A program made the position numbers and the translations under genes. The notes under the pieces are model-generated. The model was not told the origin of the DNA. It made no database searches and worked only from the letters and a program-made list of their open reading frames with translations. DNA of 32,000 bases from an archaeon (GTDB lineage: Archaea > Iainarchaeota > Iainarchaeia > Iainarchaeales > CSSED10-239): the NCBI GenBank assembly GCA_041657425.1, contig JBBABY010000007.1, positions 34,328 to 66,327 on the forward strand. Direction: 5' to 3'. Positions within the stretch are counted from its first letter, which is position 1, and each line of letters starts with the position of its first letter. Shown in pieces: positions 5,057 to 30,150 of this stretch.

Positions 5057-6067
5057 ATGGTAAAGAATAAAATTTGTCTTGGAATTGAAAGTACAGCTCA
5101 CACGTTTGGTGTAGGGATAATTGATTCCAAGGGAAAGATTTTAGCTAATTGTAAAAAACAATATGTAGTTACAGATAAAGCAGAAGGACTTAAACCTTTT
5201 GATGTTTCAATACATCACTATAATTGTGCAGTTGATGTTGTTAAAGAAGCTTTAGTTGTTGCAAAATTAAAGATGAAGGATATAGATGTTATTTCTTTCT
5301 CAAAAGGTCCTGGACTTTCGCCATGTCTTGCAGTTTCGGCAACTGTTGCTAGATGCTTGTCTGATAAATACAATAAACCAATAATTGGAGTTAATCATTG
5401 CGTGAGTCACATAGAAATTGGAAAAACAATCCTTAAGTGTAAAGACCCATTAGTGATTTACACTTCTGGAGCAAACACACAAATTATTGCTAAAGATAAA
5501 GGATACTATAAAATACTTGGAGAAACACTTGACATTGGGATTGGAAATTTATTTGATTCATTTGCAAGAGATATTGGTTATGGTTTTCCAGGCGGGCCAG
5601 TTTTGGATAAAGCATATATGGAAAACAAAAATAGACGCTATATTGAACTTCCATATTCTGTTAAAGGAATGGACTTAGCATTTTCTGGTCTTCAAACTGC
5701 AGCAAAAAGAAAGATTGCTACAGAAAAAAAAGAAGATCTTATTTATTCATTTATGCATACGGCTTATGCAATGCTTCTTGAGGTAACAGACAGAGCATTA
5801 TCGTACACCAAGAAAAAAGAAGTAATTGTTATTGGCGGAGTTGCTGCAAGTAGGGCCTTAGGAGAAATGCTTGAAAAATTATGTAAGCAAAATAAAGTAA
5901 AATTGTACATTCCTCCTGCAATTGTTTGTCTTGACAATGGTTTATTGATTGCAGATCTTGGTATTAAGCATTATATTCACACATATAAAGGCAAAGGCGG
6001 AATGAAACTAGAAGAAACAATAATCAACCCCAAGTTTAGAACAGATCAAGTGAAAATAGATTGGTGA
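5057..6067 (+). CDS. kae1: tRNA N6-adenosine threonylcarbamoyltransferase Kae1 (stand-alone, not fused to Bud32)
   Basis: GIESTAHTFGVGII N-terminus, metal-binding NHCVSHIE motif, GGVAAS block. 336 aa ending at TGA. Confidence 0.93.
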   Translation: MVKNKICLGIESTAHTFGVGIIDSKGKILANCKKQYVVTDKAEGLKPFDVSIHHYNCAVDVVKEALVVAKLKMKDIDVISFSKGPGLSPCLAVSATVARCLSDKYNKPIIGVNHCVSHIEIGKTILKCKDPLVIYTSGANTQIIAKDKGYYKILGETLDIGIGNLFDSFARDIGYGFPGGPVLDKAYMENKNRRYIELPYSVKGMDLAFSGLQTAAKRKIATEKKEDLIYSFMHTAYAMLLEVTDRALSYTKKKEVIVIGGVAASRALGEMLEKLCKQNKVKLYIPPAIVCLDNGLLIADLGIKHYIHTYKGKGGMKLEETIINPKFRTDQVKIDW

Positions 6068-14503: not shown

Positions 14504-14565
14504 TTTTTATTTAACATTTGGTTTCGTATCAGTGAAGTGTAGTCAGTACCATATAAATTCTGGCT

Positions 14566-14591
14566 GGGCGCGATCTGACCGCAACCGGCTC
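14566..14591 (+). repeat. GC-rich 26-nt hairpin motif, intergenic copy (gggcgcgatctgaccgcaaccggctc)
   Basis: Ungapped 20/26 and 19/26 identity to the two copies inside ftsY. Ends 2 nt before tRNA-Leu position 1. Confidence 0.6.
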
Positions 14592-14593
14592 AT

Positions 14594-14675
14594 GCAGGAA
14601 TTCCCGAGTGGCCAAAGGGGCACGGCTAAGAACCGTGTGCTTAGTGCTTCGCAGGTTCGAATCCTGTTTCCTGCA
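14594..14675 (+). tRNA. tRNA-Leu (class II, long variable arm); anticodon reads AAG at 14628..14630
   Basis: Hand fold: acceptor GCAGGAA/TTCCTGC, D arm CCC-GAGTGGCCAAA-GGG, anticodon arm CACGG-CTAAGAA-CCGTG, 13-nt variable region, T arm GCAGG-TTCGAAT-CCTGT, discriminator A. 82 nt. Confidence 0.75.
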
Positions 14676-14701
14676 TATTTTATTATTTAAATGGCTATTT
14701 T

Positions 14702-21872: not shown

Positions 21873-23456
21873 TTGTTTGACTTATTAAAAAATAAATTTA
21901 AGAGTTTTACAGATAAATTATTTGGTAAAGCACAAGAAACCATTGCGCGCGAGCCTAGCGAAACAGGCTCTGTTGAAGAAGAAGTAAAAGAAGAGCAATT
22001 AACACAAACTATTTCTGAACAGGCTCAAGTACAAGAACCAACAACTCAAGACTTAATTGTAGAACCACAGCCAGAACTTGTTGTTGAAGAGGTTGCTCAA
22101 GAACCAGCAATTGTAGAAATTTCAAAATCTGTAGTTGTGGAAAAACCAAAAGAGAAAGAGGCAATTAAACCAGTTGAAGTCAAAGTACCTAAATTAGAGC
22201 CAATTAAATTTACAGAAGAAAAGAAAGAAATAGAAATTCATAAAATTGAAATTGAAGAAGAACCAAAGCTAGTAATTGCAGAAGTTCCAAAAGTAAAGAA
22301 AGAGAAAGACACACTAATTGTTGGACAAACTGAAGAAGTAAAATCAGTTGTGCGCGAGCTCAGCGAAACGGGCTCACCAAAGGAAAAGCATTCTATTTTT
22401 GATATTTTTAAACCAAAACCAAAACCAGTAGTTATTGAACCAGAAAAACCAAAGGTAGAAGCAATTAAAGTACAGCCAAAACCAATTATTCAAGAAGAAT
22501 TAAAACCAGTAGTGGTTGAAGTTCCAAAAGAAGAATTGGAAGATTTAACTATTAAAAAATCAACTGAAATAAAAAAATCTTTAGTTACTTCCATAAAAAG
22601 CATATTCTCAAGTAAAGTAAAACTTTCTGAAAAAGAAATTTCTGAATTCCTTGAAGAATTTGAATTGTCTTTATTAGAAGCAGATGTTTCAATAGTTTCT
22701 GCAGAAAACATATGTAAAGATTTAAAAGAAAAATTAATACAAAGTTCTTTTTCTAAAGAAAATCCATTAGAAGATATTAAAGAACATATAAGAGAATCAC
22801 TTAAGACACAATTAGATATTGATTGTGATATTAATAATTATATAAATAAAACAAAAAAAGAAAATCAACCTTTTGTTATAATGTTTATTGGTCCAAATGG
22901 TGCAGGAAAAACTACAACTATTTCTAAGTTTGCTTATCATTACAAGCAAAAAGGAAAAGCAGTAGTTCTTGCTTCAGGGGATACCTTTAGAGCAGGAAGT
23001 ATTGATCAACTAGAGAAACATGCTGATACGATTGGAGTAAAACTAGTTAAGCAAGCATATGGTTCAGATCCAGCAGCAGTTGCTTTTGATGCAGTAACGT
23101 CAGCTAAGTCCTCTAAAGCAGACTACGTCTTTATTGACACAGCAGGAAGACAAGAAAATAATATTAATCTAATGCAAGAGCTAAAGAAAATCAAAAGAGT
23201 TGTTAGTCCAAATCTTACAATTTACATTGGAGAAGCACAAGCAGGTCAAGCAATAGTGGACCAAGTAAGTGGTTTTGAAAAAGAGATTGGAGTTGACGGA
23301 GTAATTCTAACAAAGCTTGACACTGATCCAAAAGGCGGAGTTGCAATTTCAATTCTAAATGAATTAAAAAAACCAATCTTTTATGTTGGAACTGGTCAAA
23401 CCTACAATGACTTAGAAGAATTCTCTCCTGAGTTCATAATTAAGAGAATTATTTAA
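21873..23456 (+). CDS. ftsY: Signal recognition particle receptor FtsY with about 230-aa Pro/Glu/Val/Lys-rich N-terminal domain
   Basis: NG domain motifs GPNGAGKTTTISKFA, DTFRAGSIDQL, DTAGRQ, TKLDTDPKGG. TTG start with AAGGTG RBS 8 nt upstream. Confidence 0.92.
   Translation: MFDLLKNKFKSFTDKLFGKAQETIAREPSETGSVEEEVKEEQLTQTISEQAQVQEPTTQDLIVEPQPELVVEEVAQEPAIVEISKSVVVEKPKEKEAIKPVEVKVPKLEPIKFTEEKKEIEIHKIEIEEEPKLVIAEVPKVKKEKDTLIVGQTEEVKSVVRELSETGSPKEKHSIFDIFKPKPKPVVIEPEKPKVEAIKVQPKPIIQEELKPVVVEVPKEELEDLTIKKSTEIKKSLVTSIKSIFSSKVKLSEKEISEFLEEFELSLLEADVSIVSAENICKDLKEKLIQSSFSKENPLEDIKEHIRESLKTQLDIDCDINNYINKTKKENQPFVIMFIGPNGAGKTTTISKFAYHYKQKGKAVVLASGDTFRAGSIDQLEKHADTIGVKLVKQAYGSDPAAVAFDAVTSAKSSKADYVFIDTAGRQENNINLMQELKKIKRVVSPNLTIYIGEAQAGQAIVDQVSGFEKEIGVDGVILTKLDTDPKGGVAISILNELKKPIFYVGTGQTYNDLEEFSPEFIIKRII
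21945..21970 (+). repeat. GC-rich 26-nt hairpin motif, ftsY copy 1 (gcgcgcGAGCCTagcgaaacAGGCTC)
   Basis: Perfect 6-bp stem with an 8-nt loop. Encodes AREPSETGS using codons (gcg, cgc, ggc) otherwise rare here. Confidence 0.7.
22350..22375 (+). repeat. GC-rich 26-nt hairpin motif, ftsY copy 2 (gtgcgcGAGCTCagcgaaacGGGCTC)
   Basis: Lies 405 nt (135 codons) after copy 1 in the same frame. Loop is identical. Stem is kept by a T:A to C:G double change plus one G:U pair. Encodes VRELSETGS. Confidence 0.7.
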
Positions 23457-28722: not shown

Positions 28723-30150
28723 ATGGGTTTTGGAGACAAACTAAGAGATGCACTTGATAAAATCAAGAATTCAATGCATGTCGATAAGGACTTGATTAAG
28801 GAAGTCATTAAGGAGATTCAAAGAGCTTTAATCTCTTCAGATGTAAATATACAACTAGTTCTAAACATTTCAAAAGAAATTGAAGAAAAAGCTTTTGAGG
28901 AAATACCAAGTGGGATAACAAGAAAAGAACATATCGTTAGATTATGTTACGAAACTCTTCTCAAGTACATGGGAGGAGAAGTTAAAACTCCACTTCCAGA
29001 AAACCCAGAAACAATTTTATTATGCGGTTTGTTTGGTTCAGGAAAAACAACAACTGCAGCAAAGCTTGCTAAGTTCTATAAGAAAAGAGGATTAAAGGTT
29101 GGTTTAATCTGTGCAGATACTTTTAGACCTGCAGCTTATGAGCAATTAAAACAATTAAGTGAAATGGTAGGCGTTGCTTTCTATGGTAACCCTAAAGAAA
29201 AATCAGCTTTCAAAGTCACAAAAGAAGGACTTGATGTCCATAAGAAAAACGGATGTAATTTAATAATTGTGGATTCAGCAGGAAGAAGTGCTCTTGACGA
29301 TGAGTTAGTTACAGAGATTAAAGAAATTGATCAGGTGTTTAAACCAAAGTTTTCTTTCCTTGTGATTTCTGCTGATATTGGTCAAGCAGTTAAAGATCAA
29401 GCTACTGCTTTTAATAATGCCATAGGAGTTAATGGAGTAATAATAACAAAGCTTGATGGTTCAGCAAAAGGTGGAGGCGCATTAACTGCTTGTTATATCA
29501 CTAAGTCTCCAGTGTACTTTATAGGAACTGGAGAAAAAGCTGATGATTTTGAAATATTTGATTCTAATAGATATCTTTCAAGAGTATTAGGTTTTGGAGA
29601 TCTTGAAAGTTTAATGGAAAAGATAAGTGAGATTTCTCAAGAAGAAGAAATGGAAAAGATGAAGGATTTAAATCCTGAAGACATCTTGAAAGGAAATGTA
29701 ACGTTTGGTTTATTCAAACAACAATTAGAGTTTTCAAAGAAACTTGGACCATTAACAAAGGTTATGGGTTTTTTAGGCGTAGGAAATAAACTATCTGCTG
29801 AACAGCAAAACTTAGGAGAAAAGAAACTAGGTAAATACAGAGCAATTCTTTCATCTCTAACAAAAGAAGAATTGAAAAATGGTCCAGATTTTTTAACAAG
29901 ATCAAGAATGGACAGAATTGCAAAAGGTTCTGGAACAAAATTAGAAGACGTTAAAGAACTTTGTTCACACATAAAGAAAATGAAAAAAATGTTTAAAGGA
30001 ATGGACACTAAGAAGATGGAAGGAATGGCTAAGCAACTTCAAGGACAAAATGGAGAGACGGATCCAGAAAAGATGGATCTTTCAAAGATAAACATGAATC
30101 AATTTGCAAACATGAAAGGGATGAAAAAACAGAAGTTAAAAATTAGATAA
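28723..30150 (+). CDS. srp54: Signal recognition particle protein SRP54
   Basis: GLFGSGKTTTAAKLA, DTFRPAAYEQL, DSAGR, TKLDGSAKGGGAL and a Met-rich M domain at the C-terminus. Confidence 0.95.
   Translation: MGFGDKLRDALDKIKNSMHVDKDLIKEVIKEIQRALISSDVNIQLVLNISKEIEEKAFEEIPSGITRKEHIVRLCYETLLKYMGGEVKTPLPENPETILLCGLFGSGKTTTAAKLAKFYKKRGLKVGLICADTFRPAAYEQLKQLSEMVGVAFYGNPKEKSAFKVTKEGLDVHKKNGCNLIIVDSAGRSALDDELVTEIKEIDQVFKPKFSFLVISADIGQAVKDQATAFNNAIGVNGVIITKLDGSAKGGGALTACYITKSPVYFIGTGEKADDFEIFDSNRYLSRVLGFGDLESLMEKISEISQEEEMEKMKDLNPEDILKGNVTFGLFKQQLEFSKKLGPLTKVMGFLGVGNKLSAEQQNLGEKKLGKYRAILSSLTKEELKNGPDFLTRSRMDRIAKGSGTKLEDVKELCSHIKKMKKMFKGMDTKKMEGMAKQLQGQNGETDPEKMDLSKINMNQFANMKGMKKQKLKIR

Follow-up and report, generated by a model that had tools for sequence, protein, structure and literature searches.

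A small GC-rich hairpin repeat, probably mobile, in frame within the ftsY gene of an Iainarchaeota genome

Two GC-rich hairpins in the ftsY gene

The window analysed here (the whole stretch of 32,000 nt at positions 34,328 to 66,327 of contig JBBABY010000007.1, assembly GCA_041657425.1) comes from an archaeon of the Iainarchaeota and has a GC content of about 28%. Its genes include rps19e, rpl31e, eIF6, prefoldin and ftsY, followed by those for a class-I fumarase and SRP54. The ftsY gene, which codes for the receptor of the signal recognition particle (SRP), lies on the forward strand at 21873–23456 (527 aa with a TTG start, according to the list of open reading frames, ORFs). Two short GC-rich hairpins in its coding sequence, and the repeats resembling them in related genomes, are the subject of this work.

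The first copy (21939–21971, forward strand, 33 nt including its 5′ flank, tag and trailing T) consists of ACCATT (21939–21944), GCGCGC (21945–21950), the 5′ arm GAGCCT (21951–21956), the loop AGCGAAAC (21957–21964), the 3′ arm AGGCTC (21965–21970) and a T, and reads (ET)I-AREPSETGS in frame. The second copy (22344–22376, forward strand) has the flank TCAGTT (22344–22349) and GTGCGC (22350–22355), followed by the 5′ arm GAGCTC (22356–22361), the same loop (22362–22369) and the 3′ arm GGGCTC (22370–22375), and reads (S)V-VRELSETGS. A preliminary description of this DNA had reported two motifs of about 70% GC at 21945–21970 and 22350–22375; these are GCGCGCGAGCCTAGCGAAACAGGCTC and GTGCGCGAGCTCAGCGAAACGGGCTC, each with 69% GC. 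Its other observations on the pair were reproduced as well: 24 of 28 positions are identical when two flanking bases (TT) are included, the copies are 405 nt (135 codons) apart and both in the frame of ftsY, each forms a 6-bp stem closing the identical 8-nt loop, copy 1 has T:A and copy 2 has C:G as its innermost pair, the pair next to it is C:G in the former and U:G in the latter, and the encoded peptides are AREPSETGS and VRELSETGS.

The rarity of the codons, also pointed out at that stage, is pronounced. Among the 7,514 window codons outside ftsY, which were used as the reference, CGC makes up 1.1% of the Arg codons versus 83% for AGA, and GCG, AGC, GGC and CTC are similarly scarce (3.1% of Ala, 3.5% of Ser, 6.8% of Gly and 1.1% of Leu codons, respectively); given the peptides, the odds of such a codon choice are about 1e-8 and 1e-10 for the two copies. 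A 24-nt pattern allowing up to 3 mismatches was found in the window at these two sites only, against 0.00 expected from shuffles, and the four occurrences of the pentamer GCGCG in the 32 kb are all within the two ftsY copies and the unit beside tRNA-Leu presented below. The minimum-free-energy fold of both copies is the 6-bp stem with its 8-nt loop, at about −10 kcal/mol. This energy is ordinary in comparison with shuffled sequences (z of −1.0 and −0.5), and thermodynamics alone, not being evidence, was not used. The 12-mer GAAGAAGTAAAA is present both just 3′ of copy 1 (21978–21989) and just 5′ of copy 2 (22332–22343), which may be due to chance in Glu/Lys-rich coding DNA.

Pfam matched SRP54_N and SRP54 on a protein identical to the FtsY of the window, which is also encoded on contig JBAYND010000032 (metagenome-assembled genome, MAG, GCA_041678985.1) and on one ENA contig; the nearest named relatives are proteins from Diapherotrites/Iainarchaeum MAGs. 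By eye, residues 1–19 resemble an amphipathic N-terminal helix. The A-domain (residues ~20–225), which houses both copies, is rich in E, V, K and P (22%, 14%, 14% and 10%, respectively) and is followed by the NG domain.

The preliminary description mentioned a third copy in non-coding DNA next to tRNA-Leu. The copy is real (14566–14591) but proved to be a paralogous sister variant, with the tag GGGCGC, the loop ACCGCAAC and one stem mismatch. The variant unit as a whole (14538–14592, forward strand) fills the spacer before tRNA-Leu(AAG) and stops 1 nt short of the tRNA. It is composed of AGTCAGTACCATATAAAT-TCTGGCT, the tag (14566–14571), the 5′ arm GATCTG (14572–14577), the loop (14578–14585) and the 3′ arm CGGCTC (14586–14591), and abuts the 5′ end of the tRNA gene (14593–14676, forward strand; ARAGORN, Rfam tRNA).

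Covariation of the stem and variation among FtsY orthologues

When all copies gathered in this study are considered, the unit has a core of 26–27 nt, or 33–38 nt with its flank, and is made up of an unpaired 5′ part, (ACCAT)T-GCGCGC, a 6-bp stem which may carry one bulged C, the 8-nt loop and usually a trailing T. The extent of 26 nt originally proposed is right for the core, but the unit reaches further on its 5′ side, where a conserved ACCATT precedes GCGCGC. Across 29 independent copies this flank carries 0.85–1.5 bits per position, with an invariant T at −1, and the 3′ flank carries little information.

Covariation was evaluated in an alignment of 44 distinct copies (A3), in which 7 pairs were tested, namely the 6-bp stem and one loop pair. 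The cells are paired in 95.1% of cases, and 4 of the 7 pairs have changed on both sides (19 cells), with compensatory variants such as GAGCC/GGCTC, CAACC/GGTTG and TAACC/GGTTA, and G:C, U:A or C:G as the innermost pair. The covariation score is 0.274, compared to 0.117 ± 0.014 for shuffled alignments, none of which (0 of 500) reaches the observed value, and the pairing is destroyed when the 3′ partner is slid. The loop pair G26–C32 is unsupported in this alignment. There are 15 G·T wobbles versus 3 A·C, which indicates that the strand that folds is the one written here. Antisense copies retain G·T wobbles that would be mismatches in the mRNA of the host gene, so that this mRNA is unlikely to be the relevant molecule for those copies. 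A covariance model (R1) was built from the 44 sequences, which include all three window sites, and these are therefore matched by construction (21935–21972 with 57 bits, 22340–22377 with 47.7 bits and 14556–14593 with 40.4 bits); the informative part is that no match beyond these three was obtained in the window. In seven relatives, a search of 92 kb of ftsY loci with the model gave no additional sites.

Among the 25 top FtsY homologues (58–77% identity), the SETGS peptide is found at no fewer than three positions of the A-domain, after FGK (site 1), before KEKHSIF (site 2) and before EDLTVKK (site 3), and is often absent. The majority of FtsY orthologues do not have the motif, and the peptide was not found in any FtsY homologue at about 50% identity and below. 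The DNA of the orthologous copies reads (CC)ATTGCGCGCGAGCC-N-AGCGAAAC-N-GGCTCT, with identical rare codons, and the innermost stem pair is T:A, C:G or G:C. In three loci (L005, L010 and L080, by our own numbering), the 5′ arm has an additional C, so that the upstream part is read in another frame and the peptide is LRASPSETGS. In the rest of ftsY, the codon is the same in only 53–80% of the columns with an identical amino acid; since codons diverge to this extent elsewhere in the gene, the seven rare codons kept in every copy require either constraint or recent copying. The rare codons retained in the orthologues, the covarying stem and the frame-shifted ftsY site bear out the earlier suggestion that constraint acts at the level of nucleotides or structure over that of the peptide. 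What is conserved is the nucleotide sequence with its hairpin, not the peptide.

An alignment of ftsY orthologues had been proposed in order to see whether the motif behaves as an insertion, and it is indeed present or absent in this manner at several sites of the A-domain. The site of copy 1 is filled in L102, L006, L003 and L103, and empty in L104, L005 and L105. The empty site reads GGAAA(G/A)|GCCAAAGAA in L104 and L005, and a base-by-base alignment shows that L102 has 48 additional bases there, including the unit. The site of copy 2 is filled in L105 (with the loop AGCAAAAC), decayed in L103, which has a decaying copy at site 3 as well, and empty in L006, L102 and L104, the last of which has no unit at any of the three sites. 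All ftsY copies are in the sense orientation, with the SETGS part in one common frame. At site 1, L003 (10063–10155) and L103 (3243–3330) have a 60-nt insert with two hairpins between the arms, translated as MTIEGSQGTKKSQSDLF (full reading AREP-MTIEGSQGTKKSQSDLFSA-SETGS), and this insert recurs in non-coding composites and arrays of L095. The A-domains hold about 10 copies in ~5.6 kb, compared to 4 in ~118 kb of flanking DNA. We considered ftsY as a hot spot on this basis and rejected it, the excess not being compelling once shared ancestry (3–4 events) and the small amount of unconstrained DNA are taken into account.

Copies in other genes, in spacers and beside tRNA genes

A degenerate pattern was used for scanning one genome per species in 185,579 species. 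Out of 68 matches, 12 are in loci of low-GC archaeal MAGs, and all 12 have the extended TGCGC prefix; the others, from GC-rich bacteria, do not have the prefix and are no more numerous than chance would predict. One MAG (DAOOUC01) has 6 copies over 5 contigs. Metagenome contigs, scanned more strictly, contributed 27 loci, and 46 distinct instances were collected in total. The copies outside ftsY recur in independent assemblies from ENA, NCBI, JGI and Logan, and are thus unlikely to be assembly artefacts. The known range of the family is a narrow clade of AT-rich Iainarchaeota/Diapherotrites-like DPANN archaea. The preliminary description had named as the adverse outcome an absence of further copies together with AT-rich synonymous codons in the orthologues; further copies were found, and the orthologues keep the GC-rich codons.

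Some of these copies lie in other genes. The copy in the C-terminal tail of rpl31e in L105 gives AREPSVTGS, while that in the N-terminal low-complexity part of a HerA-like ORF (L033) is in another frame and gives AREPERNRL. In L035, a nucleotidyltransferase-like gene contains two antisense copies, reading EPVSLSSRA and SRFRSGSRA. Others are located in short intergenic spacers, where the stop codon of a convergent gene often overlaps the 3′ edge of the unit. In L008:7388–7412, L027:3239–3262 and L037:79–102, such stop codons (TAG or TGA) overlap the last bases of the element, GGCTC, and the insert seems either to set the 3′ end of the gene or to have taken its place. Composites are present upstream of accessory genes identified by eye as DUF1016, KilA-N and ORF6N, of which Pfam confirmed ORF6N only. 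A second conserved module, CACTGGACAnCTACCCYCCCGAAAA, precedes the start codons of accessory genes by 5–90 nt, at times fused to the hairpin unit. Pfam confirmed ORF6N among these genes, and inspection by eye suggested KilA-N-, Bro-N-, DUF1016- and PD-(D/E)XK-like ones. The module lies at L020/L093:4049–4068 and 5096–5115, L057:4312–4331, L078:6088–6107, L081:144–163, L088:496–515 and L035:321–340, and a promoter, a 5′ untranslated region element and a cassette boundary are candidates for its nature. Neither this module (modT) nor the hairpin core had a match in the viral contigs of IMG/VR, and since these scans were empty, a viral origin was rejected.

The nucleotidyltransferase-like gene offers the most direct view of how units are acquired. 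Its product has 274 aa in L035, compared to about 249 aa in homologues, and three alleles (L107, L106 and L035) have 93–94% identical DNA. The L107 allele is empty at both sites, A and B. The L106 allele has one complete unit, ATTGGGCGC-GAGCTG-ACCGAAAC-CGGCTC-T, at site A, and that of L035 has a second unit nested in the one at site A as well as a unit at site B. The net gains are +21, +30 and +24 nt; each insertion also replaces a few of the adjoining bases, so that the frame stays open. More distant homologues do not have any of these units, which identifies the units of L106 and L035 as gains. At the empty site A of L107 the junction reads ...GAAATGATT|, and ACCATT may thus be a preferred target or a part of the unit. 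The L102 copy in ftsY is surrounded by a 6-nt duplication (GGTAAA) and the L006 copy by one of 30 nt; target-site duplication was nevertheless rejected as a feature of the family, as other copies show none. A series of 5′ truncations, considered as a signature of retroposition, was likewise dropped, because C-to-T decay of ACCATT explains the variable 5′ extent equally well. The family also merges, nests and shuffles, as illustrated by the 60-nt inserts, the long forms and tandem arrays of 50 nt.

A second setting is the end of tRNA genes, from which 12 of the 46 instances are separated by 0–2 nt, always with the hairpin end toward the tRNA. Copies on the same strand abut the 5′ end of tRNA-Gly (TCC/CCC), tRNA-Leu (AAG) and tRNA-Ser genes, and convergent ones the 3′ end of tRNA-Leu (TAA), Glu, Ala and Thr genes. 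The spacer between tRNA-Val and tRNA-Leu has 23 nt and no unit in L104, and 88–145 nt with a unit and co-varying arms in L005/L010, L102 and L003. The 50-nt form of the tRNA-Leu leader unit is tandemly repeated in L095, where composite GC-rich arrays (355–615 and 1815–2166) lie on both sides of a gene judged by eye to be DUF1016/YhcG-like; they contain at least 5 tandem units of 50 nt (AGTAGAACCATACAAGAT + CTGGCTGGGCGCGAGCTCACCGCAACGGGCTC), and the window leader at 14538–14592 corresponds to one such unit. The long forms (L061:7030–7104, L086:180–255 and L060:2870–2947, and, on the minus strand, L091:212–290 and L079:4321–4400) consist of a TATA-like region, about 40 nt with a second hairpin, and the core unit. 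The second hairpin has a constant ATAA loop and a covarying stem (CGCAG/CTGCG, CGTGG/CCACG, CGTGC/GCACG or GCGG/CCGC), and the core either ends 1 nt ahead of tRNA-Gly or directly adjoins a convergent tRNA gene at its 3′ end. The long forms may be small RNAs matured by RNase P.

No replication-strand bias was detectable around the copies, the GC skew following gene orientation. Rfam returned only tRNAs, both at the gathering score (window and 9 loci) and at E values up to 5 (6 repeat-rich loci), and no description of such elements for Iainarchaeota or DPANN archaea was found in the literature searched. Comparison by eye gave no fit to the hammerhead (CUGAUGA...GAAAC), K-turn/K-loop, T-arm or bulge-helix-bulge splice motifs, nor to SRP RNA, RNase P RNA or integron attC sites (RYYYAAC/GTTRRRY). 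CRISPR repeats were ruled out, since the 50-nt arrays have near-identical "spacers". A likeness to helix 45 of 16S rRNA with the anti-Shine-Dalgarno tail is a post-hoc idea that was not used, and the loci contain no 16S gene.

As for the surroundings of ftsY, SRP54 lies on the same strand about 5 kb downstream (28723–30150), and no copy of the element was found in it. The distance between the two genes is shorter in the relatives L003 and L005, with one small ORF in between. Downstream of both genes in L102 (15554–18247), a bAvd-like gene (weak match), two genes with Lcl_C domains and a stray SRP_SPB fragment may represent a diversity-generating retroelement, which would imply a reverse transcriptase in the lineage.

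Nature of the element and comparison with known systems

The units have been gained in low-complexity coding DNA on either strand, in spacers, in other copies and at the ends of tRNA genes. The preliminary description had offered the insertion of a palindromic element into a tolerant low-complexity domain as an alternative, and this is the better-supported mechanism given that copies outside ftsY are read in other frames, lie on either strand and occur in non-coding DNA, and that close relatives have filled and empty sites. We consider, with a probability of about 0.7, that the ftsY motifs are copies of a small GC-rich hairpin repeat, probably mobile, which resembles either repetitive extragenic palindromic (REP) sequences or the GC clusters of mitochondria, and which is translated in the disordered A-domain. 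The units would sit in this acidic domain between the N-terminal helix and the NG GTPase and would simply be translated, (A/V)RE(P/L)SETGS being a by-product. Their constant frame probably arises because the 5′ sequence GAA-ACC-ATT is either preferred or transferred along with the unit; the phase of GAA-ACC-ATT|GCG-CGC-GAG matches that of Glu codons, which would account for the shared frame of sense copies in acidic coding DNA. The spreading machinery would recognise the hairpin on a single-stranded nucleic acid, and the candidates for mobilising it are an enzyme of the HUH/Y1 type, as for REP/RAYT and IS200/IS605, or recombination and gene conversion, as proposed for mitochondrial GC clusters. 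No observation links the element specifically with the function of FtsY.

Several observations weigh against this reading. No gene for a transposase, an integrase or a RAYT-like protein was found in the window, the ftsY loci or the searched genes of L093, whole genomes being outside this search. The Pfam analysis, which gave no transposase, covered 10 window ORFs, 8 ORFs of the 14-kb repeat-rich island L093 (with matches to YgjP-like, AAA_14/DUF4143, ORF6N, UvrC and Fic) and two host ORFs (L033 and L035). Target-site duplications are not consistent, and the two best-resolved insertions are accompanied by small flank replacements, with no clean cut-and-paste signature. Moreover, the copies at ftsY site 1, in the L008/L082 spacer and in the tRNA-Leu leader are almost unchanged between species while their flanks have diverged, and the arms of the leader change compensatorily in situ between species. 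Such near-unchanged orthologous copies look like the result of purifying selection; the reason could be a host function, or gene conversion that homogenises the copies. The A-domain also has 1–3 copies in most genomes of the clade, and is denser in them than the surrounding ~15 kb, which are mostly constrained coding DNA.

In a rival reading, the hairpin would be a modular RNA element beneficial to the host, such as a signal for processing, stability or protein binding. Its home would be a tRNA leader or a gene for a small RNA (the long forms), from where mRNAs such as those of ftsY and rpl31e would have acquired it. The TATA-like region and covarying second hairpin of the long forms, with their end 1 nt before tRNA-Gly, the constant direction of the hairpin end toward the tRNA boundary, the compensatory changes in orthologous tRNA-Leu leaders, the wobbles indicating a single folding strand and the upkeep of a GC-rich sequence in a genome of 28% GC all speak in its favour. 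We nevertheless regard it as unlikely, given the copies antisense to genes or operons (twice in L035, and in L008/L082, L027 and L090) with their wobbles retained, the absence from many close relatives (in L104 the three ftsY sites and the tRNA-Leu unit are empty) and the decay in L103, the recent gains in an unrelated accessory gene, and the lack of any Rfam family even at E values up to 5. Somewhat less likely still is a related proposal, in which the units would be structured RNA modules linked to tRNAs and of a class not described before. The long forms would be small RNAs, with a 3′ end produced by RNase P at position +1 of the tRNA or at an antisense "mirror" tRNA, the 3′ domain would spread through RNA or single strands without a dedicated transposase, and the copies in mRNAs would act in processing, stability, protein binding or ribosome bypass. 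As for the last of these, the coding copies examined do not look like bypassed inserts, which interrupt the frame or carry stops: all of them are open, and every net change is divisible by 3 (+48 for site 1 of ftsY, and the three in the nucleotidyltransferase-like gene).

A conserved, non-palindromic ACCATTGCGCGC beside a dyad is a layout common for protein-binding sites, and the unit could accordingly be a site in double-stranded DNA for a host protein (a regulator, nucleoid protein, recombinase or restriction/modification enzyme) copied by ordinary recombination. Two sequences that are rare in the genome, GCGCGC and in some copies GAGCTC, form part of the unit, whose positions include gene ends and the spacer from tRNA-Val to tRNA-Leu. 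The arms, however, covary while changing freely in sequence (GAGCC, CAACC, TAACC), as fits a folded single strand; together with the asymmetry between G·T and A·C, the nesting of units within units and the tandem 50-nt arrays, this makes such a site improbable. The least probable explanation, to which we give hardly any weight, is a peptide repeat, that is, a short linear motif (A)RE(P/L)SETGS needed by FtsY and duplicated in its A-domain, with GC-rich codons left over from a recent duplication. The common frame and orientation of SETGS in all ftsY copies and the AREPSVTGS of the rpl31e tail would be in agreement with it, but most orthologues do not have the motif at all, the same DNA has at least 5 readings (LRASPSETGS, AREPERNRL, EPVSLSSRA and SRFRSGSRA among them) in addition to its non-coding copies, and the synonymous positions either do not vary between species or covary with the base that they pair with.

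The preferred reading, a small and probably mobile hairpin repeat, accounts for the unusual GC island of an essential gene with no need for a signal specific to FtsY. The inserts add 9–20 residues to the protein and vary between close relatives, which matters for annotation and alignment, and they exemplify the remodelling of a compact genome by selfish DNA. The element is usable as a strain-level marker and is a likely source of recombination, as recombination between the two direct copies in ftsY could remove exactly 135 codons without shifting the frame. FtsY peptides spanning ETIAREPSETGSVEEE and SVVRELSETGSPKEK would show that the copies are read through. The likeness to fungal mitochondrial GC clusters suggests that reduced, AT-rich genomes converge on one kind of parasite.

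In bacteria, REPs consist of an imperfect palindrome with an unpaired GTAG or CGTC tag; some are inside genes, and some are mobilised by the RAYT tyrosine transposases (PMC3733652). The unit described here shares with them a multicopy sequence of 20–40 bp, an imperfect palindrome with a conserved unpaired motif at one end, the occurrence of single and clustered copies, some of them intragenic and many plausibly transcribed, and the absence of an obvious target-site duplication. The criterion that REPs are mostly extragenic and downstream of ORFs gave a mixed result, with many intergenic copies at gene ends and others inside the ftsY, rpl31e, HerA-like and nucleotidyltransferase-like genes. The tag differs, being (ACCAT)TGCGCGC, or GGGCGC in the variant, instead of GTAG/CGTC, and the host is a DPANN archaeon, whereas the REP hosts named in the abstract of that paper are bacterial groups only (PMC3733652). 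In addition, many copies are here intragenic and translated and others are flush with tRNA genes, and there is no RAYT in the window, the ftsY loci or the eight searched L093 ORFs, a search that did not extend to whole genomes. The repeat family has an end motif unlike that of bacterial REPs, and was not found in Rfam or in the literature searched.

The palindrome-associated elements derived from IS200/IS605 insertion sequences are moved as single-stranded hairpins by HUH/Y1 transposition, have hairpins at both ends and are longer. The common points are a strand-specific hairpin, a short conserved sequence on one side that is possibly the target, the lack of target-site duplication and the orientation-specific ends; the differences are that no TnpA was detected here and that the resolved insertions carry small flank replacements. 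A miniature inverted-repeat transposable element was rejected, since the only inverted repeat is the 6-bp stem, there are no consistent flanking direct repeats and no parent insertion sequence was seen.

GC-rich palindromes are reported to flank the mitochondrial tRNA genes of Neurospora (Yin et al. 1981, as cited in PMC4478555 and PMC8811140). The GC clusters of AT-rich fungal mitochondria, which in yeast include GC42, are known for in-frame insertions in var1, a sporadic distribution, merger and shuffling (PMC4478555, PMC8811140), and ribosomal bypass of the "byp" inserts is cited for one yeast, Magnusiomyces, in PMC8811140. Both they and the present unit (69% GC in a genome of 28% GC) are GC-rich hairpins of about 30–45 nt in a very AT-rich, compact genome. 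They have in common presence and absence between relatives, in-frame insertions that lengthen proteins, merger, nesting and tandem arrays, the flanking of tRNA genes (Neurospora), a constrained hairpin and no known dedicated transposase. Their sequences are unrelated, the setting here is an archaeal chromosome and not an organelle, and the AG/TAG terminal repeats of the clusters, taken as target duplications, are not present, the unit having the one-sided ACCATT flank. The likeness is one of behaviour, an analogy that implies neither homology nor descent. The Rickettsia palindromic elements, which are inserted in frame in genes of reduced genomes (reviewed in PMC10969869), are also in-frame palindromic repeats in many unrelated coding genes, translated as an extra peptide at tolerant positions, but they are bacterial and of about 100–150 bp, compared to the single short hairpin of 26–38 nt. 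On the preferred reading, the kind of element is a known one, that of REP-like or GC-cluster-like mobile palindromic mini-elements.

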